From: Candidatus Latescibacterota bacterium
Lineage (GTDB): Bacteria > Latescibacterota > UBA2968 > UBA8231
DNA length: 64,000 nucleotides
Assembly: GCA_965200315.1 (NCBI GenBank)
Contig: OZ241362.1
Location: 2,144,001 to 2,208,000, forward strand
Direction of reading: 5' to 3'
Shown here: one piece after another, positions 3,716 through 18,710 of the stretch
Layout: every line of letters starts with the position of its first letter
Numbering within the stretch: position 1 is the stretch's first letter
The notes under the pieces: model-generated
Seen by the model: the letters and a program-made list of their open reading frames with translations, nothing else
What the model was told of the DNA's origin: nothing
Databases searched by the model: none
Made by a program: the position numbers and the translations under genes

Positions 3716-5101
3716 ATGAATTTAGAAGAATTCCAAATTCACAATAGTCATCTTGAAGGTGCCTTTTCCGACCTCGACCCGCACCTCAGACGCCTGCGCA
3801 ATCAGCCCCTAATCTATCGCTTTCCCCTCCTCGACCGCCTGCCGCGCAACCAGCCGGGCATTTACACGGTGGGCGGGGGCCGCCAGATTGGCAAAACTAC
3901 CCTGCTCAAACAGTGGATGGCCGACCTCCTTGCAACCGGCGTTGACCCAGCTCGTCTGCGCTTTTTCACCGGCGAACTCATCGACGATCACCACGCGCTA
4001 GTGCGCTTGGTATCAACTCTACTGCGAGAAATGCCCACCGAGGGCCGGCGCTATATCCTGCTTGACGAAGTAACCTATATCGCCGGTTGGGACAAGGGGA
4101 TCAAGTACCTCGCCGACGCCGGCTTGCTCGAAGGCGTCGTGCTCATTGCGACCGGCTCGGACATGGCGGTCATCCAAGAGGCCCGCATGCGTTTTCCTGG
4201 CCGCAGAGGGCAAGCCGCAGAGGTTGACTTTCACCTCTATCCCCTGAGCTTTGCCGCGGCCGTGGGTCTAAAGCGCTCGCTGAGCAGCCAAGAGTTGCTA
4301 CAATTGGCACAGCCTAAATCGCCGCTACCCGAAGAGATAGAGCAAGTCCTGCGCGAGGAATTTCTCGCCTATCTAGTCCACGGCGGCTTTCTCACCGCCA
4401 TCAACGATATGGCTCGCCACGACTGCATCCTTCCGGCCACATTCGCCACGTACAGCGACTGGATACGCGGAGATATGCTCAAGCGCGGCAAACAGGAGCA
4501 CTATTTGGGCGAAGTGCTGGCCGCCATTGTCCGCTGCTGCGGCACCCAGACCACGTATAACGCCTTGGCCCGCACACTTAGCATCGACCATCCCGCTACC
4601 GTGAGCGACTATATCGCCCTGCTCACCTCTATGGATGTCCTCCGCATGCAGCCGGCCTTGCGCGAGGACAAGCTGACCGGTGCGCCGAAAAAGGCACGCA
4701 GAATCAGCTTTTGCGATCCCTTCATTTTCCACGCCGTGCAAAGCTGGCTACACGCGGCGCAGGACCCTTTCGCCACCGAGGTGCGCCCCCTCCTCGCCGA
4801 CCCCGAGCTCACCGCCACCCTAGTAGAAGCCTGCGCCGTTGCCCATTATAGCCGTCGCTATCCCACCTACTATATCAAAGGCGAGGGCGAAGTGGATATC
4901 GCTTATGTAAAAGACGGTCGTTTTTGGCCCGTGGAAATCAATTGGACGGACCAGTTGCGGCCTAAGACGCTCAAGCAGATCAGCAAGTACGCCAACAGCC
5001 GCATCCTCACCCGCCGGAGTGCGCCAGCGAAAATAGGAGGTATTCCCGTCGAGTTCCTGCCCCAGGCCCTGCTGCGCCTAGACCTAGAGGAGCGGACTTA
5101 A
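3716..5101 (+). CDS. AAA+ ATPase (AAA_14 + DUF4143-like)
   Basis: Walker A GGRQIGKTT, Walker B YILLDEV, ATGS, HGGF, and C-terminal GEVDI...PVEI nuclease-like motif. Confidence 0.85.
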   Translation: MNLEEFQIHNSHLEGAFSDLDPHLRRLRNQPLIYRFPLLDRLPRNQPGIYTVGGGRQIGKTTLLKQWMADLLATGVDPARLRFFTGELIDDHHALVRLVSTLLREMPTEGRRYILLDEVTYIAGWDKGIKYLADAGLLEGVVLIATGSDMAVIQEARMRFPGRRGQAAEVDFHLYPLSFAAAVGLKRSLSSQELLQLAQPKSPLPEEIEQVLREEFLAYLVHGGFLTAINDMARHDCILPATFATYSDWIRGDMLKRGKQEHYLGEVLAAIVRCCGTQTTYNALARTLSIDHPATVSDYIALLTSMDVLRMQPALREDKLTGAPKKARRISFCDPFIFHAVQSWLHAAQDPFATEVRPLLADPELTATLVEACAVAHYSRRYPTYYIKGEGEVDIAYVKDGRFWPVEINWTDQLRPKTLKQISKYANSRILTRRSAPAKIGGIPVEFLPQALLRLDLEERT

Positions 5102-5298
5102 AACGTCATCCCTTTCAGCCGACCGCAACCTCGGTCTCCTCCTCATCTTCCAGGACTTGGAACAAGACGCCTCGATCAAAGCAAGACTGCCCGGGCAGGA
5201 TGGTCTCCCTGTATGCACTCCGCAAGCAGGCATCCGGAACGCACCGCACAGCCGTCGGCCGGAGCCGGCCCCTAGCCCACGGGCCGATAGGTTAGGCT

Positions 5299-5350
5299 GG
5301 ATTCCCGCCCCGTGTCGGGGCACGGGGTGACGTTCTTGCGCGGGAATGAC
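5299..5350. repeat. GATTCCCGC...GCGGGAATGAC palindromic repeat (dRS3-like)
   Basis: Same ends recur at 60692-60715 (GATTCCCGCATGCGCGGGAATGAC). This copy carries an internal insertion. Confidence 0.6.
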
Positions 5351-5437
5351 AACGGGGGAACGGCAGGAAGCAGCACAGGCTATATGAAGACCGCGTAACG
5401 GCAGTTATCTAACTGACGTTACACAAGCCCTAGGTCA

Positions 5438-5597
5438 GAAGCTGTTGAGTTATCCGGCGGTGGTTTCGATTCTCTTCGCAAGCCCTATCCCCCCGGCCCC
5501 CTTTCCGACGCGGAAAGGGGGACAACAGCCGGTTCGCCCTGCCTCGCAGGAAGGGGGGCTAAGGGGTAGGTCTCACGAAGAATAGCTCAACAGCTTC
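5438..5597. mobile_element. 160-bp MITE with 16-bp terminal inverted repeats and TCA target duplication
   Basis: GAAGCTGTTGAGTTAT (5438-5453) vs ATAGCTCAACAGCTTC (5582-5597), one mismatch; TCA at 5435-5437 and 5598-5600. Confidence 0.7.
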
Positions 5598-5659
5598 TCA
5601 GGGATGCTTCCCTTCGCTCAGCATGACAAGCGTCGGCGCGTTCCCTTGCTCTGTCGGGC

Positions 5660-6967
5660 TCAGCGTTCCTCGTCCTCCTCGTCCTTCTCCGCATCTTCGT
5701 TCCCCTCCAACTTGCTGCGAATGAGGCTGGGGTCTTCGGCAACGCGGTCGCCGCTGGCAAGGCCGGAGAGAATTTCAAAGCGCGTCGAAGTCTCAATGCC
5801 GATGGCCAATTCCACCTCGGCGAAAGCACTGAGCGGCAGGTGCAGCGCACTGTCTGGGCGCGTGCTGTCCGCCGCTGCGGCGAGCGAATCCGGCGACTCG
5901 GCCATATAGGCGACAAAACGGCCGTGCTCGTCTTCTTCGTCCTCGTCGTCAAACACTTCCAGCACCCGCTCCACCGGCAGGTACACCGCGCTGTCGCGCC
6001 GCGCAAACAGAATGTCGATGTCGCACGACATGCCCTGGCGCAGGCGCGGCGCGTGGTCGGTAATCTCGATCTCGGTGTCAAAGGTGACGATGGTGCTGCC
6101 CTGCCGCTGCTGACCCACCGGAGCGATCCAGCGCACCCGACCGCCATACGTGGTGTCGGGATACGCATCCACGACAATGTCCACGGCTTGGCCAACCTCC
6201 ACCCGGCCAATGTCGATTTCCGCGATGTCGCCGCGCACGATGAGCTGGCTGGGGTCGCCGATCTGGAACAGTACCGTCCCGCCAGAATACGACGACAGCC
6301 CAGAGGCCACCACCTCGCCGATTTCCACGTTGCGGCGGATGACAATGCCGTCAATCGGGGCGAGGACGCGCATCTCGTCGAGCGCGACTTGATCTTCTGA
6401 GAGTTGGTCGCGCTGTAGGTTGGCCTTGGCTTCGAGCATGTCGAGTTCGAGTTGGGCTAAGCGCAGGCCGGTGCGCGCGCGCGTCAGGCGCACCTCGGCT
6501 TCCTCAAACTGCTTGGCCGGTATCATCTTGCGGTCGAACAGGGCCTTCTGACGCTCAAAGTTCCGCTCCTGCTCCGCTAGGTCAATTTTGCCCTGCTCCA
6601 CGCTGGAACGCTTCTGATACAATTGCAGCGATTGATTGGGGTCTGGCTCGATGACGGCCATCAGTTCGCCCGTCTCCACCCACTCGCCAGCCTCTATGGG
6701 CAAGTCGCGGATTTCGCCGGCAATGGTGGATTTGACCTCCACGGTCCGCACCAGCTTGATGCGGCCGGTTTCAGCCAGCTTATCGACGACCGCGCCCCGC
6801 TCGACGAGTGCCGTGGGATAGGTTGCTTCGGCCTTTTCCTGCCGCAGGTTGAAATAGACCGCCGCTCCGACCGAGCCGGCCAACAGCAAGAAGACGAGGA
6901 GCTTTACGAGGCGACGTCTTTGAGTCGTTGGGGACACCAGATTAGCCTTGGGGGGCAAAGGCTGCAC
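5660..6967 (-). CDS. Efflux periplasmic adaptor subunit (MacA/HlyD family)
   Basis: N-terminal TM helix, lipoyl-like halves VKSTIAGEI / APIDGIV...GEVV, coiled-coil hairpin, EILSGLASGD. Confidence 0.9.
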   Translation of the reverse strand: MQPLPPKANLVSPTTQRRRLVKLLVFLLLAGSVGAAVYFNLRQEKAEATYPTALVERGAVVDKLAETGRIKLVRTVEVKSTIAGEIRDLPIEAGEWVETGELMAVIEPDPNQSLQLYQKRSSVEQGKIDLAEQERNFERQKALFDRKMIPAKQFEEAEVRLTRARTGLRLAQLELDMLEAKANLQRDQLSEDQVALDEMRVLAPIDGIVIRRNVEIGEVVASGLSSYSGGTVLFQIGDPSQLIVRGDIAEIDIGRVEVGQAVDIVVDAYPDTTYGGRVRWIAPVGQQRQGSTIVTFDTEIEITDHAPRLRQGMSCDIDILFARRDSAVYLPVERVLEVFDDEDEEDEHGRFVAYMAESPDSLAAAADSTRPDSALHLPLSAFAEVELAIGIETSTRFEILSGLASGDRVAEDPSLIRSKLEGNEDAEKDEEDEER

Positions 6968-7658
6968 CGAGCGAAGCGAACCCGGCGATCCAACCTATCC
7001 AAAGGAGCGACAGCACAATGGCCCCAATGTAAGCCCGGCTGCGATCTACCTGCCCGACGATGGACAGACCAAGCCCGACGAGCACGGTCCACCAAATTAA
7101 AAATGGGTCCATTTCGGCCAGAAAGCGCCCGCCGAAACTTTGCAGGGCCTCCTCGGACAGGAAAAGCCCTAGCCCCATTTGGATTTCCGTCGTCTTACTG
7201 GCCGAAATGAGCAGCGCAGCGACTATTTGTTGGGGAAGGATGACCAGCCCGGCGTAGGCCATTATGGCGAGGGCTTGGCCGTAGGAGAGCAAGCCGCCGA
7301 ATAATTTGCCCAGCACTAGGCAAAGCACAGCGGAGATGAAGAGGTAAATGAACATCACAATCGGCGTAGCGATCAGGGTCGCCACTTGGCCCGCGCCTTG
7401 GGATTGGAACTTCTCCACCATTTCGCGCTCATCGGCGGACATGTCTTTCATCTGCTGCATGTTCTCTTGGTGGGCCTCGGTTGCGATGGGTAGGACGAGC
7501 AGGGCGGCTGCCGTCGTCACTGCGGCAAGTAACGCGGTCGGCACCAGCCAGTCGGCGACACTGCGCTGCTCGCTTACAGCCTCAAAGGTCTCGGATGGAG
7601 CGTAGAAGACGCGCAATATGCGGCCGACGATGCTCATTTCTGCTTGGGGACTTTCCAT
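6942..7658 (-). CDS. Yip1-family membrane protein
   Basis: VFYAPSETF N-terminal motif and about 5 TM helices; YknW-like position upstream of a MacA/MacB set. Confidence 0.75.
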   Translation of the reverse strand: MESPQAEMSIVGRILRVFYAPSETFEAVSEQRSVADWLVPTALLAAVTTAAALLVLPIATEAHQENMQQMKDMSADEREMVEKFQSQGAGQVATLIATPIVMFIYLFISAVLCLVLGKLFGGLLSYGQALAIMAYAGLVILPQQIVAALLISASKTTEIQMGLGLFLSEEALQSFGGRFLAEMDPFLIWWTVLVGLGLSIVGQVDRSRAYIGAIVLSLLWIGWIAGFASLGAAFAPQG

Positions 7659-7811
7659 GGCAGTTCCTTTGTGTGGGAGGTTTTCGCCGACAGCGGCGAA
7701 TGTTCCGGTTATAAGCAAACTAACGATTGCCTAGCACATATCCAAACAAAGAGGCCAAGGTCGTCTAGGGCTCCAATCAGGGCCAATGCCAATAGAGAGG
7801 AGACTGAATGT

Positions 7812-11991: not shown

Positions 11992-14220
11992 CTAGTCCTT
12001 AATGGCGATGATCTCGGCCACCTCTTTTTGCAAATTGACCAACTCGCAAAAGGTCCCCTGCTTGTCCATAAGCTCTGCGTGCGTCCCCTGCTCGACGATG
12101 CGGCCGTCGTCGAGGACCATCAGACGGTCGGCGTTGCGCAACGTCGAAAGCCGGTGGGCAATGGCCACGGTGGTGCGGCCCTCAATGAGCCGCTGAATCG
12201 CCTCTTGGATCTGCAGCTCGGTCTCCACATCGACCGAGGCGGTGGCTTCGTCGAGGATCAGGATGCGTGGGTTGTGGAGAATGGCGCGGGCGATGGAGAC
12301 GCGCTGGCGCTCCCCGCCCGAAAGCCCGGCCCCCTTCTCCCCGACTTGGGTCTCATAGCCATCGGGCTTAGCCATGATGAAGTTGTGGGCGTTGGCCGCA
12401 CGGGCGGCCGCCATGATGTCCGCAAAGGAGGAACCGGGCCGGCCGTAGCCGATGTTTTCGGCAATGGTGCCGGAAAAGAGCACCGGCTCCTGCAGCACGA
12501 TGCCGATCTGCGAGCGCAAGTCGCGCAGAGCGATGCGGCGGATGTCGATCCCGTCGATCTCAATGGTCCCGTAATCGACGTCGTAGAAGCGGGCTATGAG
12601 ATTGATGGTCGTCGTCTTGCCGACCCCGGACTTACCCACCAAGCCGATCATCTCGCCCGGCTGGATGTCCAAGTCAAAACCCTTCAGCACGGGCTTGCTC
12701 TTGTCGTAGCCAAAGGTGACGCCCCGGAAGCAAATGCCCCCCTGCATTCGCGGCAGCCGCTCGGCGGTTGGGTCCTCGTAGGCCTCGGGCTGGGTGTCGA
12801 TAACCTCGAAGATACGCTCGGCTCCGGCAAAGGCCCGCGACATCCAAGCATTGACTTGGCCGAACCACTCCAAGGGGCCGTAAAACAGCCACATATACGA
12901 GTAAAAGGCCAACAGCGTACCCAAGGTCATTTTTCCGCCGAGGACTTGCAGCCCGCCGAGAAGCCAGATGACCAAGACTCCCAAACCCGTCAGGAACGTG
13001 ATGGTAGCGAAGAACACGCCGCGATTTATCGCGGTCTTTTCGGCAACTTCGCGCAGCCGGCCGTTGGGCTTGGCAAAAGCCGCTATTTCCCGGCCCTCTT
13101 GGGCAAACGCCTTGACCACGCGGATGCCGGAAAGCGTCTCCACCGTGCGCTCCGTCAGGCCAGACCAGACCTCGCCCCACTTGACGAAAAAGCCGCGCAG
13201 CCGCCGCCAAAAAACCACCCCCCACAGCATGATCAGCGGCACGGGCACCAACACGTATAAGCTCAACGACCAACTCATCCAGAACAAAAACCCGAGGATG
13301 CCGAAAACCATCAGGCCGTTGATGACGATATAGGGCAGGCCATCGACGAGGAAGTCCTGCAACATGCCGGCGTCGCGGGTGGCCCGCGAGATGAGAGAGC
13401 CGACCCTGCGCTTGTCGTAAAACTGCAAGGACAGCATCTCCAAGCGGCGGTAGAGGAGCGAGCGAATATCCGCGGTGAGCTGCGCGCCGAGCCAAGTCGC
13501 AATCCAGCCGTGGGTCCATTCGGCGACCCACGCCGAGAAGCGGACGCCGACCAAGGCCACGACGAACAGACCCAAGAGGTGGATGCGCTCGTCAGCCCCG
13601 GTGGCTTGGCCCTCTACCGGGACCAACACCTCATCGACGATGCGCTTGATAATCAGCGGCGGGGCCAACTCCGCAGCCGTGGTGGCAATGGAAGCGAAGG
13701 CCAAGACGCCTGCCTTGAGTTTGTACGGGCCGAGATAGCTGGCAATGCGCTTGAGGGTCGCCAGTTTTTTGATACACGCCGGACAGATGCCGTCTTTCTC
13801 CGGCAAGAGCCGCTCGCAGCGCTCGCAGCGGGTCCGCTCCAAGTGCCCATTGACGACAAAGGGCTGGCCTTGACGCAGCTGCTCCAAACCTCGCACCACC
13901 TCGGACATCTTGTCAGCTTCAGAGCTGGTGTAGCCCAGCACCAAGGTTGGCGCATCCACGCGCTCGATTTCCAACTGGCCGCCGCCGACAATCGCGTCGG
14001 TGCGCACCTCGGCCAGCGCGGCGAGGGGAATATCGACGACAGCACCCTGAGTGGGCACGACGAGGACCCGGCGCGGGGTGGCCACCAGCCACTGGCGGCC
14101 AAAGCGCCCGTCGGCGGCCAAATCCGTAGAGACGCGGATTAGCACCTCCTCCTCAGCGGGCAGGGCGGCGGCGATCCGCACGGCCGCGGTCGCGTCGGCT
14201 GGCTCTAGCAGTTTTTGCAC
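11992..14220 (-). CDS. ABC exporter (fused TMD+NBD), paralogue with the same N-terminal extension and Zn ribbon
   Basis: CERC...CPAC; GKSGVGKT; LSGGERQR; LDEATAS; IAHRLST. Confidence 0.9.
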   Translation of the reverse strand: MQKLLEPADATAAVRIAAALPAEEEVLIRVSTDLAADGRFGRQWLVATPRRVLVVPTQGAVVDIPLAALAEVRTDAIVGGGQLEIERVDAPTLVLGYTSSEADKMSEVVRGLEQLRQGQPFVVNGHLERTRCERCERLLPEKDGICPACIKKLATLKRIASYLGPYKLKAGVLAFASIATTAAELAPPLIIKRIVDEVLVPVEGQATGADERIHLLGLFVVALVGVRFSAWVAEWTHGWIATWLGAQLTADIRSLLYRRLEMLSLQFYDKRRVGSLISRATRDAGMLQDFLVDGLPYIVINGLMVFGILGFLFWMSWSLSLYVLVPVPLIMLWGVVFWRRLRGFFVKWGEVWSGLTERTVETLSGIRVVKAFAQEGREIAAFAKPNGRLREVAEKTAINRGVFFATITFLTGLGVLVIWLLGGLQVLGGKMTLGTLLAFYSYMWLFYGPLEWFGQVNAWMSRAFAGAERIFEVIDTQPEAYEDPTAERLPRMQGGICFRGVTFGYDKSKPVLKGFDLDIQPGEMIGLVGKSGVGKTTTINLIARFYDVDYGTIEIDGIDIRRIALRDLRSQIGIVLQEPVLFSGTIAENIGYGRPGSSFADIMAAARAANAHNFIMAKPDGYETQVGEKGAGLSGGERQRVSIARAILHNPRILILDEATASVDVETELQIQEAIQRLIEGRTTVAIAHRLSTLRNADRLMVLDDGRIVEQGTHAELMDKQGTFCELVNLQKEVAEIIAIKD

Positions 14221-14388
14221 GCTCAGGCCTCAAAAAAAACTGCGGGGGTAGCCCCGCAAAACAGGTTGACTCAACCCTGAAAAAGCTACTCTTGGCGTTT
14301 GGACAATGGCAAGGGAAAATTGGAAAAGGGTGCTCGGTCGTGGACAATCGCTTTGCCAATTCGCCCTTATCCTTACATTATAGGGTCT

Positions 14389-15186
14389 ATGACCGCTATG
14401 ACCGCAGACCAAAAGACACGGGTGTTCTCGTCCTGTGAAGAGCGCAACCAGCAGCTAGCCCACTGCCTCCGCGACCTAGTCCTAGAGCAGATGCCCGCCG
14501 CGGATCTCTTGCGCTGGGCCAGCGAGACCTTCCCCGGCCGGGCCGTGCTCAACACCAGCTTCCAGTACACAGGCGTCGCGATGATCCACATGGCGACGTC
14601 CATGGGGCTGAATTTGCGCTTTGCCACCATCGACACCCTCCGGCTCCACCCCGAGACGTACGCCTTTATGGAGGAAGTCAAAGTGCGCTACGGCTGCCAC
14701 TTCGAGGTCGTTCAGCCCAAAAGCGGCGATGTTGAGCGGATGGTCGCACACCACGGCGAGTACTTGTTTTTCGACTCCAAGGAAAAACAGGAGCACTGCT
14801 GCCAAGTGCGGAAGGAATGGCCCAACAACGCGCTGTTACAGACCGCGGACTGCTGGATTTCGGGGCAGCGCTGGGACCAGTCCGCGCATCGTCAGCAGAC
14901 CGCGAAGAAGGCGGCCCTGATCGACGAGTACAGCACCCGGCGCAAAATACTCAAGCTCAATCCATTGGTCGATTGGAGCGAAGAAGCACTGATGGAGTTT
15001 ACGCGGGCAAACGACTTGCCGGTGCATCCGCTCTACGGCCAAGGCTACCCGAGCTTTGGCTGCATCATCTGCTCCACTCCGATCCGGCCCGACGAACCCA
15101 AGCGCAACGGTCGCTGGCGTTGGTTCAACGAACAAGCCGACGGCCCAGACGACCACAAAGAGTGCGGGCTACACTACAACATCTGA
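14389..15186 (+). CDS. cysH: Adenylyl-sulfate (APS) reductase, thioredoxin-dependent, CysH family
   Basis: IDTLRLHPETY, CC (EHCCQVRK) plus CxxC (GCIIC) 4Fe-4S ligands, KLNPLVDW, GRWRW, C-terminal KECGLH. Confidence 0.9.
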   Translation: MTAMTADQKTRVFSSCEERNQQLAHCLRDLVLEQMPAADLLRWASETFPGRAVLNTSFQYTGVAMIHMATSMGLNLRFATIDTLRLHPETYAFMEEVKVRYGCHFEVVQPKSGDVERMVAHHGEYLFFDSKEKQEHCCQVRKEWPNNALLQTADCWISGQRWDQSAHRQQTAKKAALIDEYSTRRKILKLNPLVDWSEEALMEFTRANDLPVHPLYGQGYPSFGCIICSTPIRPDEPKRNGRWRWFNEQADGPDDHKECGLHYNI

Positions 15187-15199
15187 AGGAACCTGAGCA

Positions 15200-15550
15200 A
15201 TGGTCCAAGCCTTGGAATGGCGCTACCACCGCCCCGGCTGAACGAGCTGCAAGCGCGCACAAGAGTTTCTTGTGCAAAACAGCATTGCCGACGGCATCGT
15301 GCAGAGTGCGACCAAAGAACCGGTCGCAGGTACGGCCGCCCTCACTCTGCTCGAGGACGCGACCGAGCTGTTCGTCGCCCAAGGGCAGCAAATCCTCCGC
15401 TTCGACTTGGTGGCGCAACGGCCGGCGGACGAGGAATTGCTCCCGCTTCTGTTGGGGCGTTCTGGCAAGCTGCGGGCACCCGCGTTCCGCTGCGGTACGC
15501 GCCTGATCGTCGGCTATAATCAGGCGCTGCTGCCGACGGCGTTGAGCTGA
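15200..15550 (+). CDS. ArsC/Spx-like thioredoxin-fold selenoprotein (UxxC), in-frame TGA at 15239-15241
   Basis: ATG 15200 after AAGGA gives MVQALEWRYHRPG-TGA-TSCKRAQEFL, continuing in frame into the 15272..15550 ORF (GKLRAP..LIVGYN). Hairpin GCACAAGA-GTT-TCTTGTGC at 15257-15275. Confidence 0.82.
15257..15275 (+). promoter_or_regulatory. SECIS-like hairpin
   Basis: Perfect 8-bp stem with a G-first apical loop 23 nt after the UGA. Confidence 0.65.
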
Positions 15551-15729
15551 GCACATATGGTAGAGATCGGCTTCACTCGTCCCGCAGTTAAAGTTGCAAA
15601 TCTCAATAAGGCGAAAGACCTAGAGCAAAATGACTTGCGAGTTATATTTCCTTACAAAAAATAAAAGGGAAATATCGTCTAATACATCGAATGGAAACCG
15701 CGATTTATCTTTCCCGAGTACCAATGCCC

Positions 15730-17199
15730 TCACTGATTCGAGGAATGCGGATAGACCCGCTCCCACCCCGCCGCACCGAACACCTTATCGGCCCACAGAG
15801 GGCCACTTGCAGAGGCGTCCACCAAATTGTAGTCGTGCGAGGATTGCACGGAGCGCATGACCTCGCGCCAAAGTGCAGCGTCTAAGTGCCGGTATTCGGC
15901 CGCGTGCGACGCGGATTCGGCGAGATTGTGCTGTTCTTGAGGATCTTCCTGCAAATCGAAAAGCCCGGTCGCGCCGTTGCCGTACTTCACTAGCTTGTGC
16001 CGCCCGTCGTAGGCCATCCAGCCAGATTGCAAGCCGCCGATGAGCATGTCGCGCGGTGTATCGCCGGCCAAGCCCAAGCCGGGCAAGGGCCTAGCGTCCA
16101 TGTACTCCGGTACACCGTGCCCAGATGCGGCTAACAGGGTAGCGGTGACGTCCGTGAGACAAACGAGATCGTCGCGCACCGCGCCGACGGCACCGCCCGG
16201 CTGGCGCACTAGCATGGGCACGTGGCAGCTACCCTCGTAGAAGTTGCCCTTGGCGTTTACGCCGTGATCTCCGACCAAGTCGCCGTGGTCGGAGGCGAAG
16301 ATGACGATGGTGTTGTCGAGACGGCCGCTTTCCTCCAAGGCCGCGAGGATTTGGCCGACCTCGTGGTCTATCTGCAAGATGAGCGCGGAGTAGTGGGCGC
16401 GCACCTTGCGCTTCTGCTCCTCGGTGTAGGGACCTTCGGCCTCTGGAGTCCATATCGGCACGCCCGGCCGAGGCCGAGGATGGATGCCCTCGCGGACATC
16501 CCGGTGAATGGGATCGCCGGGGGCAGGATCGGGAATGTTATCGACATCTACTTTAGCCAGAAATTCAGGCGTGGGATCGTAGGGGTCGTGGGGGCCGGGG
16601 AAGCCGACCATGCAGGCGAAGGGCCGCTCGTCGTCGTACTCGCGGATGAAGCGCGCAGCCTCCTCGCCGACGAAGTAATCCCAGTAGCAATCCCAAGGCA
16701 AAAGCGACACGCAGGCACCGCGATTTTCGTCGTATCCTTCGTGCTCCTTGCCCATGTACTTGCGGTGGCCGCGCTGTTGCAGATAGTGCCAGTAATCATC
16801 TTGGATGTTGACCCACACCTTGTCTTCGCAGGCGATGCGATGTTGGAAGCCAAAAGAGGCTTCCCACGGGTAGAAGTGCATCTTGCCGATGGCCGAGGTG
16901 AGGTAGCCGTGGTCGGTCAACATCTCCGCCCAAGTGCGGATGCCACACGCAGCGTGGTCCGGTCGCAGGTGGTTGCCGTTGGTCAGCACGTGATTGCGCC
17001 AAGCATTGAGGCCAGTCAGCAGCGAACAACGCGCCGGTACGCAGACCGGATGCAGGCTGTAGGCGCGGTCGTAGCGGATTCCCTCGGCGGCAATGCGGTC
17101 GATGTGGGGCGTGGAAATGTGGGGAGCACCGTAACAACTGAGAAAGTCGTGGCGCATCTGGTCGGGCATGATGAACAACAAATTGGGTCGGTCGCTCAT
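15730..17199 (-). CDS. Sulfatase (formylglycine-dependent, choline-sulfatase-like)
   Basis: RPNLLFIMPDQ, CVPAR (CxPxR), GKMH, PHDP, SDHG, KGNFYEGS. Confidence 0.92.
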   Translation of the reverse strand: MSDRPNLLFIMPDQMRHDFLSCYGAPHISTPHIDRIAAEGIRYDRAYSLHPVCVPARCSLLTGLNAWRNHVLTNGNHLRPDHAACGIRTWAEMLTDHGYLTSAIGKMHFYPWEASFGFQHRIACEDKVWVNIQDDYWHYLQQRGHRKYMGKEHEGYDENRGACVSLLPWDCYWDYFVGEEAARFIREYDDERPFACMVGFPGPHDPYDPTPEFLAKVDVDNIPDPAPGDPIHRDVREGIHPRPRPGVPIWTPEAEGPYTEEQKRKVRAHYSALILQIDHEVGQILAALEESGRLDNTIVIFASDHGDLVGDHGVNAKGNFYEGSCHVPMLVRQPGGAVGAVRDDLVCLTDVTATLLAASGHGVPEYMDARPLPGLGLAGDTPRDMLIGGLQSGWMAYDGRHKLVKYGNGATGLFDLQEDPQEQHNLAESASHAAEYRHLDAALWREVMRSVQSSHDYNLVDASASGPLWADKVFGAAGWERVYPHSSNQ

Positions 17200-17315
17200 G
17201 GTTCTATTCCATTCGTTAGGGTGTTTTCGCACTCGTCCGCGCTTTGGCCCAATCGTCGGCGCATCCTTGGTCAGCTACTAATTGCTAGGGGACGGCCTTC
17301 GTTGGTGCGCTCATA

Positions 17316-18710
17316 CTAATTCTCTTGGCTACGAGCGGCAAGGACCAGCTCCTTGAACTGATCTCCGCGTGCAGCGTAACTGGGAAACTGATCGAAGCTA
17401 GCGCAGGCCGGCGAAAGCAGCACCACGTCGCCAGTCTGCGCTAGGCGACGAGCAGCGTCTAGGGCTTCAGGTAGGCCGGGGCAGCGGTGGATAATCCCAC
17501 CAGCACCCGCCTGCCGTACAGCAGCGGCAATGCGCCGGGCCTCTTGACCGATGAGCAGCACGGCGCGGACATTGGCCGCGGCAATAGCAGTGCCCAAGGC
17601 ACTGAAATCGGCCCCTTTTGAAGCGCCGCCAGCGATCAGCAGCAGGGGCGCGTCAAAGGCCCGGATGGCAGCACAGCTAGCATCGACGGTCGTGGCCAGT
17701 GAGTCGTTGTAATAAGTAACGCCGTCGCACTCGGCAACGTATTCGAGGCGGTGGGGAAGGCCCGCAAAGGAGCGAATGGCCGCGGCAAAATGGGTCGGCG
17801 GCGCACCAAAGGCCAAAGCACCAGCTACGGCAGCGGCGACATTGCTCCAATTGTGTTGTCCCCGCAGAGGAATGTCGTCCACCGGACAAATAGCGGTCGG
17901 TTGCGCCCCTGGGCAGCAGGCCCACAACTGGCCAGCGGCAATCCACGCACCCGGAGCACTCGGGGTGGTTGTGCTAAAGGCCCACAGGGTAGCTAAACTC
18001 TCATCGGCAAAGGTTCGAGCCGTGGGACAGTCCCGATTGACGACGAGGATATCGCCGGGCGTTTGGTAGCGACAGATGGGTTTTTTAGCAGCGACGTACT
18101 CGGCGCGGTCAGCGTGATAGTCGAGGTGGTCCTCGGTGACGGAAAGAACCACGGCGATGTGCGGGCTTTGGTCGAGGTCTTGCAATTGGAAGCTGGACAG
18201 CTCTAGAACGACTCGGTCGGTCGGCTGCAACTCGTCAAGGAATTCGAGCGGCGGCCGGCCGATGTTGCCGCCGCTAAACACCCGTACCGACGGATCGGTT
18301 GCCAGCAAGGCATGCAGCAGCGCGGTCGTAGTGCCCTTGCCCTTGGTGCCGGTAATGCCGAGCACGGGCGCGGGGCATAGCTGTAAAAAGAGGCGCGTCT
18401 GGCTCGATACTTCGACGCCGCAACGGCGCGCCGCGCACAGGCGCGGGTCCAGCATCGGCAAGCCCGGCGTGCGGAACAGCAAGTCGAAGTCGGTCAGGTC
18501 ATCGAGGTAGCGGTCGCCGATGCGCCACCGTCGTACGCCCTCCACCGGCGTGGCCGGGGCACGGACATCGCACACGGCAAAGGGAATCTGGCGCACGTGG
18601 AGAAAGCGAGCCAGCGCGCGGTTTTCTATGCCGAGGCCAAGGAGGGCAATGCGCCGCTGGTGCAGAGCCGCGCTTGACTCTTTGGGGCCGGAGGATTTTT
18701 TTAGCGCCAT
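17316..18710 (-). CDS. murD: UDP-N-acetylmuramoyl-L-alanine--D-glutamate ligase
   Basis: GITGTKGKGTT, GGNIG, LELSSFQL, DHLDYH, HRLE, NDSLAT, LLSPACASFDQF. Confidence 0.95.
   Translation of the reverse strand: MALKKSSGPKESSAALHQRRIALLGLGIENRALARFLHVRQIPFAVCDVRAPATPVEGVRRWRIGDRYLDDLTDFDLLFRTPGLPMLDPRLCAARRCGVEVSSQTRLFLQLCPAPVLGITGTKGKGTTTALLHALLATDPSVRVFSGGNIGRPPLEFLDELQPTDRVVLELSSFQLQDLDQSPHIAVVLSVTEDHLDYHADRAEYVAAKKPICRYQTPGDILVVNRDCPTARTFADESLATLWAFSTTTPSAPGAWIAAGQLWACCPGAQPTAICPVDDIPLRGQHNWSNVAAAVAGALAFGAPPTHFAAAIRSFAGLPHRLEYVAECDGVTYYNDSLATTVDASCAAIRAFDAPLLLIAGGASKGADFSALGTAIAAANVRAVLLIGQEARRIAAAVRQAGAGGIIHRCPGLPEALDAARRLAQTGDVVLLSPACASFDQFPSYAARGDQFKELVLAARSQEN

Follow-up and report, generated by a model that had tools for sequence, protein, structure and literature searches.

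A predicted UxxC selenoprotein of the ArsC/Spx-like class encoded directly behind cysH in a lineage of Latescibacterota

The cysH locus and its in-frame UGA codon

In a stretch of 64,000 nucleotides (nt) from the genome of a Candidatus Latescibacterota bacterium (contig OZ241362.1; the whole stretch is called the window below) the sulfur assimilation gene cysH is followed closely by a small gene that is interrupted by an in-frame UGA codon. Translation of positions 15200-15547 with TGA read as selenocysteine (Sec, U) gives a product of 116 residues which starts MVQALEWRYHRPG-U-TSCKRAQEFL, and its frame is that of the open reading frame (ORF) 15272-15550 called with translation table 11. The stop codon of cysH, a TGA, occupies 15184-15186 and the ATG of the small gene is found at 15200, with the AGGA of the spacer forming a Shine-Dalgarno-like site 9 nt ahead of it. 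Comparative analysis of the codon, of a hairpin downstream of it and of the host genome indicates that 15200-15550 is a genuine selenoprotein gene (Table 1).

Conservation of the codon was followed in 81 loci from Latescibacterota, Gemmatimonadota and Acidobacteriota, which derive from two scans of species-representative genomes, the first giving 18 loci, one of which was dropped, and the second giving the best 80 of 124 relatives. The dropped locus (L032, Sphingorhabdus), which encodes a distant ArsC-family protein of 25% identity, is left out of all counts, and alignment A2 excludes the protein P0110 for its long insertion. Each of the 81 loci has TGA at the homologous codon, preceded by WRYHRPG and followed by xSC. 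In a full-length alignment of 64 sequences, reaching down to 56% identity, residues W7, Y9, R11, P12, U14, S16, E22, F23 and L24 are invariant, as are G86-R-S-G-K-L-R92 and P94; the presence of invariant residues on both sides of the TGA thus argues that an ordinary stop is excluded. Cys17, the second position of the UxxC motif, is nearly invariant (alignment A4), the sole case among the 81 loci with Ser instead of the resolving Cys being L072 (4001-4348), which reads U-T-S-S. Two variants at the Sec position itself were seen among 120 listed database relatives, namely the full-length protein P0045 with Cys (RPG-C-TSC) and P0032 with Trp (RPG-W-TSC; seen at the protein level and not at that of the codon), and Cys forms of this family, catalogued as NF041106, seem to be rare. 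Members from Acidobacteriota (L086, L096, L098, L102-L104) have a GTG start and a 12-residue insertion just ahead of the LLGRSGKLRAP loop.

A hairpin resembling a selenocysteine insertion sequence (SECIS) follows the codon. Its perfect stem of 8 bp is formed by 15257-15264 and 15268-15275 around a GTT loop at 15265-15267, the stem beginning 15 nt and the loop 23 nt past the UGA, and it is the sole element of the centroid fold of a 65-nt stretch. The folding energy of the region is not unusual (z = -0.58; 54 of 200 shuffled sequences fold as well), and because energy could not distinguish the hairpin from shuffles, covariation was used instead. In 80 distinct homologous stretches 90.2% of the stem cells are paired, and two of the eight pairs covary: pair 27-41 is GC in 39, AU in 25 and UA in 12 stretches, and pair 29-39 is AU in 63 and GC in 16. 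Neither the covariation score nor the percentage of pairing was reached in any of 500 column shuffles, and versions of the stem slid by 1-3 columns are only 26-66% paired. One of the covarying positions is a synonymous third base while its partner alters the amino acid, a pattern that coding constraints alone would hardly produce. A search of 14100-15900 against Rfam returned no family at E values up to 1.

The host genome, a single contig of 5.36 Mb (94.7% complete, 7.8% contaminated), has what is needed to read such a codon: SelA (478 bits), the winged-helix domain of SelB (58.8 bits), SelD (371 bits) and a tRNA-Sec (71.9 bits). The selD frame, which lies outside the window (G000:C1:2481770-2482693), contains one in-frame TGA itself, and the host SelD is probably also a Sec-containing protein. 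The genome encodes two canonical thioredoxins that score above the cut-off of their model. A thioredoxin match above the cut-off (99.8 bits, in a 302-residue frame) is located at 2485017-2485313, about 2.3 kb downstream of SelD.

The product of the upstream gene belongs by its sequence to the CysH-type assimilatory reductases of (3'-phospho)adenosine 5'-phosphosulfate, (P)APS. It matches PF01507 with 115.3 bits and NF002537 with 197.3 bits (cut-off 154), and it scores 173.9 bits against the APS reductase model TIGR02055, below its cut-off of 235.3; the CC pair (137-138) and the CxxC cysteines (225 and 228) are present and the protein ends in KECGLH, which contains Cys259. These five cysteines (C137, C138, C225, C228 and Cys259) are invariant in 48 relatives. 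In such enzymes CC...CxxC cysteines hold a 4Fe-4S cluster and mark the APS-specific subclass, of which this protein is a candidate member, and CysH needs a reductant of the thioredoxin fold to resolve its thiosulfonate intermediate, a task performed by thioredoxin or glutaredoxin.

Table 1. Features of the cysH-selenoprotein locus, in window coordinates.
Feature	Position	Strand	Basis
cysH, assimilatory (P)APS reductase, 265 residues (assigned by sequence)	14389..15186	+	PF01507, NF002537
Spacer between cysH and the selenoprotein gene, 13 nt, starting with AGGA	15187..15199	+	sequence
Predicted selenoprotein gene, 116 codons and a TGA stop, U14-x-x-C17	15200..15550	+	NF041106, PF03960, AlphaFold model
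In-frame UGA, read as selenocysteine, residue 14	15239..15241	+	TGA in 81 of 81 loci; aligns with Spx Cys10
TGC, Cys17, presumed resolving cysteine of UxxC	15248..15250	+	aligns with Spx Cys13
SECIS-like hairpin, 8-bp stem, GTT loop	15257..15275	+	centroid structure, covariation
Sigma-70-like promoter match 5' of cysH, weak, 9 of 12 positions	14353..14381	+	consensus match only
Convergent sulfatase gene, variable cargo of the cysH/murD gap	15730..17232	-	PF00884, 156 bits
murD-like Mur ligase gene, putative ancestral convergent neighbour of cysH	17316..18710	-	Mur_ligase_M and Mur_ligase_C matches
Divergent ATP-binding cassette (ABC) transporter gene, fused membrane and ATPase domains, context only	11992..14220	-	Pfam

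The scan for promoters upstream of cysH found one sigma-70-like site where 0.4 were expected, and the scan for terminators detected no terminator-like site between cysH and the selenoprotein gene; the ABC transporter gene has one at 14259-14240. In RNA libraries from the study of a likely source sample, contigs from three metatranscriptomes cover the region with at least 99% identity, and every one of the three includes one contig that runs across both cysH and the selenoprotein gene. Given the short spacer, the lack of a terminator-like site and these bridging contigs, co-transcription of the pair is likely in the lineage of the window. Some RNA-library contigs end or start at 14251 and 14265, beside the hairpin that resembles a terminator of the ABC transporter gene, with one of these ends running into adapter sequence, and contigs also end or start at 14363, inside the promoter-like match before cysH; these positions may be transcript ends. 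The remaining genes of sulfate assimilation are scattered: the window covers 2.14-2.21 Mb of the contig, with sat (ATP sulfurylase) about 0.5 Mb away at 2.70 Mb and sulfite reductase about 1.1 Mb away at 1.04 Mb.

A preliminary description of this DNA, made from the letters alone, agrees well with these data. It had pointed to an ATG with a ribosome binding site 13 nt past the cysH stop and in frame with the ORF 15272..15550, to the string YHRPG-TGA-TSCKRA, to the perfect GTT-loop hairpin and to the ECGLH cysteine of CysH, and it had noted that no other cys gene is adjacent and that a sulfatase gene lies convergently next door; all of these observations hold in the present analysis. The selenium machinery, on whose presence it had made its reading depend, is encoded in the genome, and its assignment of the product to UxxC selenoproteins with an ArsC/Spx thioredoxin-like fold is upheld by the family and structure comparisons that follow.

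Family membership and predicted fold

The selenoprotein family has already been catalogued and the product of 15200-15550 is, by its profile match, a correctly delimited member. It scores 108.1 bits against NF041106, 'ArsC family (seleno)protein' (cut-off 85), residues 5-109 covering positions 1-105 of the 107 in the model, and the same model used in a six-frame search of the genome gave 100.4 bits with one TGA. Matches to broader or neighbouring models are weaker, with 23.7 bits for the ArsC family PF03960 (threshold 24, E 6.1e-5) and scores below the cut-off for TIGR01617 (Spx/MgsR; 21.9 bits against 75.05) and NF002459 (20.6 bits against 123). No ArsC equivalog model was present among the NCBIfam matches at E values up to 0.1.

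An AlphaFold2 model built with the 64-row alignment was obtained with high confidence (predicted local distance difference test, pLDDT, 95.3; predicted template modelling score, pTM, 0.88). It opens with a beta-alpha-beta unit and carries the redox motif at the N-terminal end of helix 15-26, followed by a beta hairpin at 56-69 and by a strand pair (95-98 and 101-104) after the invariant R92-A-P94 loop. Spx came first in a profile search of the PDB sequences (E 4.4e-8), in an alignment which places Sec14 and Cys17 on Spx Cys10 and Cys13 and G-K-L-R-A-P on G-L-L-R-R-P, and it was also the best match by structure (Z 8.1, root-mean-square deviation 3.2 over 88 residues). Small redoxins of the thioredoxin, NrdH and glutaredoxin type reach Z 6.7-7.8 over about 71-74 residues, YffB reaches 7.4 and the ArsC proteins 6.0-7.3. 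These comparisons place the protein in an ArsC/Spx-like thioredoxin-fold class, within a subfamily of its own.

In a review the family is entered as 'Arsenate reductase-like protein, UxxC', and the functions of such families are described there as largely uncharacterised (PMC13188914). The Global Ocean Sampling (GOS) selenoproteome lists an 'Arsenate reductase 2, cd03032, UxxC', which is probably the same family (PMC2398784), and ArsC-like selenoproteins are also tabulated by Zhang et al. (2006; PMC1794560). With NF041106 members the protein shares the UxxC motif with Sec in first position, the length and the in-frame TGA, and no defining difference separates it from them. Full-text literature searches, in which results on cysH, selenoprotein and ArsC together were judged by titles and abstract openings, yielded no printed link between the NF041106 family and CysH. 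What is new with respect to the catalogued family is the survey of its contexts, together with the lineage-specific place of the gene at 13 nt from the end of cysH.

Within the phylum the family was found above the NF041106 cut-off in 38 of 168 Latescibacterota genomes, each with one TGA; all 38 belong to the taxonomic family of the window and include 30 of the 31 genomes assigned to its genus. In the same phylum, genomes G080-G100 (genus g31, family f4) contain a second, distant ArsC-like frame of about 104-107 residues with one in-frame TGA (e.g., G097:C1:3079967-3080272), which scores only 24-29 bits on NF041106 and may represent a different Sec-containing ArsC-like subfamily.

Linkage to cysH and history of the gap

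Seen from the selenoprotein, linkage to cysH is the property of a minority. A cysH gene is found within 4 kb upstream in 24 of the 81 loci and is absent there in 57. It is directly upstream in 20 of the 24, all of them close relatives with 85-93% selenoprotein identity; the gap is 13 nt in the 17 of them in which cysH passed the ORF selection, and in the three others (L023, L024 and L041) the tblastn match to cysH ends 5-16 nt before the selenoprotein start. The four more divergent linked loci (L049, L053, L056 and L068; 64-70% identity) have gaps of about 0.23, 1.2, 0.66 and 0.23 kb, respectively. Locus L075 has just 447 nt of upstream sequence, in which a cysH neighbourhood is not judgeable.

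A quick maximum-likelihood tree (81 rows, 115 columns, midpoint-rooted, the row of the window itself being absent) united the 24 linked loci in a single 31-row clade, whose unlinked rows are the subclades L026/L046/L027/L047 and L031/L070 together with the long-branched L076. The six unlinked loci of the same Latescibacterota group are L026, L027, L031, L046, L047 and L070. The three of these genomes that were checked all have cysH elsewhere, about 100 kb away for L026, about 15 kb for L027 and megabases away for L031, and in the first two of these genomes (cysH loci L037 and L038) no redoxin gene lies behind the relocated cysH. In the L031 genome the cysH relative (56-58% identical; G003:C1:1934044-1934824) consists of two adjacent pieces in different frames, corresponding to query residues 6-170 and 171-265, which suggests a frameshift or an assembly error; the selenoprotein gene there is intact.

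Outside Latescibacterota no universal conserved neighbour was found. Recurrent neighbours there include SurE, GNAT, a beta-lactamase-family protein, an amidohydrolase, an asparaginase, peptidases, hydrolases and several proteins with no Pfam match. Tight same-strand partners are a GNAT acetyltransferase in four loci, a 174-residue protein with no assignment in three, and elsewhere peptidases, hydrolases and a methyltransferase, and no recurrent sulfur or redox partner was detected among the neighbours of the family loci outside the cysH-linked clade. The presence of CysH was sampled, with the CysH protein and PF01507, in five selenoprotein-encoding genomes of other phyla (four Longimicrobiales chromosomes and one Vicinamibacteria genome). 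One has a CysH, 35% identical and about 380 kb from the selenoprotein gene; among the others one has CysD, DndC and a distant PAPS-reductase-like protein only, two have only distant PAPS-reductase-like proteins and one has no PAPS_reduct domain at all. As four of the five genomes lack CysH, it would not be the general substrate of the family.

Seen from cysH the picture is the same. In a survey of 80 loci encoding CysH relatives of 46-94% identity, an NF041106-like gene was found within 3 kb in 12, each belonging to the 13 loci whose CysH identity is at least 73%; none was found within that distance in the 67 loci of 68% identity or less, which include other Latescibacterota. In these 67 the gene following cysH is a convergent Mur ligase in 10 (gaps of 0-101 nt), mostly in Latescibacterota-like metagenome-assembled genomes, a ThiS-family gene in 24 and a prokaryotic JAB-domain gene in three, the latter two groups being nearly all Poribacteria; in none is it a thioredoxin, glutaredoxin or ArsC-family gene. 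The ThiS or JAB gene of the Poribacteria loci (L145-L193) stands about 60-390 nt downstream of cysH, an arrangement that resembles a sulfur-carrier (CysO/Mec-like) route to cysteine.

The murD-like gene of the window is three genes beyond cysH (17316-18710), and since the more distant cysH orthologues face murD directly, the selenoprotein gene appears to have been inserted into a variable cysH/murD gap. The simplest history would start from directly convergent cysH and murD genes, with insertion of the selenoprotein gene in one Latescibacterota family and later arrival of further cargo such as sulfatase, dehydratase or defence-like genes. In L049, L053, L056 and L068 the gap contains a galactarate-dehydratase-like gene; in L019, L029 and L045 a GmrSD/AAA defence-like cassette abuts the selenoprotein gene. 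This cassette (about 4352-7700 in these three loci, where the gap is 0 nt, and present also in L046) encodes a GmrSD_N protein, an AAA_15/AAA_21/DUF3696 ATPase and a 334-residue protein, and looks like a defence island inserted between cysH and murD. The patchy distribution of the family, and the Gemmatimonadota rows next to the Latescibacterota clade, would fit horizontal acquisition.

General redoxin or reductant of APS reductase

Sec normally marks catalytic redox sites, and together with the UxxC motif this makes a catalytic selenol-thiol oxidoreductase the most natural reading of the protein. Sec14 would attack an oxidised sulfur of the substrate, either a disulfide or a sulfur oxyanion adduct, to form a selenenylsulfide; Cys17 would resolve this into an internal Se-S bond, and a cellular reductase or thiol system would then re-reduce the selenoprotein. 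The account that we consider probable overall is that of a genuine NF041106 selenoprotein which acts as a general redoxin and whose place behind cysH is a lineage-specific local insertion. This work gives the first context map of the family, and the Sec codon in all 81 members examined, the covarying hairpin and neighbours that vary by clade favour a general redoxin over a pathway-specific one. Reduction of CysH would accordingly not be the general role of the family on these comparisons, because most members lie far from cysH and some occur in genomes that lack it.

The preliminary description had gone further and taken the selenoprotein for the dedicated electron donor of the APS reductase, a claim for which it looked to conservation of the adjacency among relatives. 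The adjacency proved to be confined to 24 of 81 loci in one clade and is split in six genomes there, none of the 67 more distant cysH loci has an NF041106-like gene nearby, CysH is missing from four of the five genomes of other phyla, and the host encodes two canonical thioredoxins; the claim is not supported, and the lack of conservation that would speak against it is largely what was found. As evidence for selenium-dependent sulfate assimilation the adjacency is weak, because it is limited to one clade, repeatedly broken and set in an insertion-prone gap, and because the family thrives without CysH.

A narrower version is the strongest competitor of the general redoxin, namely that the selenoprotein, once its gene had been inserted behind cysH, took on the role of physiological and perhaps preferred reductant of APS reductase, in this lineage only. 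Sec14 would here attack the S-sulfocysteine at Cys259, freeing sulfite, and Cys17 would resolve the Se-S bond. The operonic spacing of 13 nt in 17 loci (with cysH matches ending 5-16 nt before the start in three more), the retention of the linkage in 24 of the 31 clade rows and in 12 of the 13 closest cysH loci, the bridging RNA-library contigs, the UxxC motif on a thioredoxin-like fold and the basic residues R11, R87, K90 and R92, which are invariant in the motifs that flank the redox site in the alignment and might help to bind the sulfonate, are all in its favour. Plant APS reductases, which carry a fused redoxin domain of their own, offer a precedent. Like that domain and like the thioredoxin and glutaredoxin reductants of CysH-type enzymes, the protein combines a thioredoxin-like fold with a motif of dithiol type, here selenol-thiol, and is encoded beside the reductase; unlike them it belongs to a different, ArsC/Spx-like subfamily, is linked in one clade only and is known here from gene position. 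The same-clade genomes that split the pair while keeping cysH in all three checked, the lack of a substitute redoxin gene downstream of cysH in the two genomes inspected, the intact selenoprotein gene beside a cysH match spread over two frames, the 57 family loci with no cysH nearby, the genomes without CysH, the two thioredoxins and the hot-spot nature of the insertion site speak against it, and on balance we judge it unlikely. Its fullest form, in which a sponge-associated Latescibacterota lineage has wired a perhaps horizontally acquired UxxC selenoprotein into the cysH transcript as the selenium-dependent reductant of the APS reductase S-sulfocysteine, is in our estimation distinctly doubtful.

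Several points nevertheless weigh against the general redoxin with a merely local insertion. A UxxC protein of the thioredoxin fold would be chemically suited to discharge the CysH thiosulfonate. The genes flanking the pair differ in L049, L053, L056 and L068, yet cysH stays 0.2-1.2 kb upstream, and a linkage that outlasts changes in the flanks would go somewhat beyond passive synteny. The 13-nt spacer has no promoter of its own and ties expression to cysH, a tie that could have been selected for a functional reason. The tree, a quick one on 115 columns, leaves 32 of its 76 inner branches unresolved, so that a single origin with two losses of linkage is not firmly established. CysH was sampled in just five genomes of other phyla and the second scan covers the best 80 of 124 relatives, and the RNA-library contigs may contain DNA and are no proof of a single transcript.

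Other functions are far less probable than either of these. An Spx-like redox-sensing regulator, which would bind RNA polymerase and use a selenol/thiol switch to control the adjoining sulfur-assimilation gene, is suggested by the rank of Spx as best solved relative by both profile and structure. The Spx of Bacillus subtilis (PDB 1z3e, 3gfk, 3ihq and 6ghb) has the same fold class at 24-26% identity, in an alignment that keeps C/U-T-S-C in register and also matches the G-x-L-R-x-P loop preceding strand 3; the protein differs from it in having Sec for Cys10, in being shorter, in failing the Spx/MgsR model and in the beta hairpin 56-69, where Spx is helical. Only 88 of the 115 Spx residues align, small redoxins score nearly as high, Sec normally marks catalytic sites, and Spx regulators are to our knowledge a feature of Firmicutes, all of which makes this reading very improbable.

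ArsC proper, an arsenate reductase coupled to glutaredoxin, here with Sec for the catalytic Cys, is scarcely more than a nominal candidate, even though there is a marginal PF03960 match, ArsC structures are among the fold matches and Sec-containing ArsC forms are in print; the printed Sec form of ArsC proper is UxxS (GOS selenoproteome; PMC2398784), against UxxC here. The R773-type ArsC and YffB (PDB 1rw1) share the fold at the level of the Pfam clan (Z 6.0-7.4); the protein differs from them in its CxxC-type rather than single-Cys or UxxS site, it matches no ArsC equivalog model, and it has no ars gene context, none of 53 scanned neighbour proteins being arsenic-related. Finally, the reading of the UGA as an ordinary stop, in which only the 92-residue ORF from GTG 15272 or nothing would be made, has in its favour that gene callers cut here and that most database entries have 83-92 residues, and is close to refuted by the residues invariant on both sides of the codon, by a curated family model and a predicted fold that need residues 5-30, and by the SECIS-like hairpin and full Sec machinery.

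The general redoxin thus remains the preferred account, with the small gene behind cysH delimited as a full-length member of a family that gene callers routinely truncate to 83-92 residues. Local functional recruitment to CysH is chemically plausible, and in the cysH operon of one Latescibacterota genus an orphan selenoprotein family gains a concrete, testable substrate candidate; if the protein does serve as a cysH-coupled reductant, assimilatory sulfate reduction would for the first time be tied to selenium use at the level of an enzyme.

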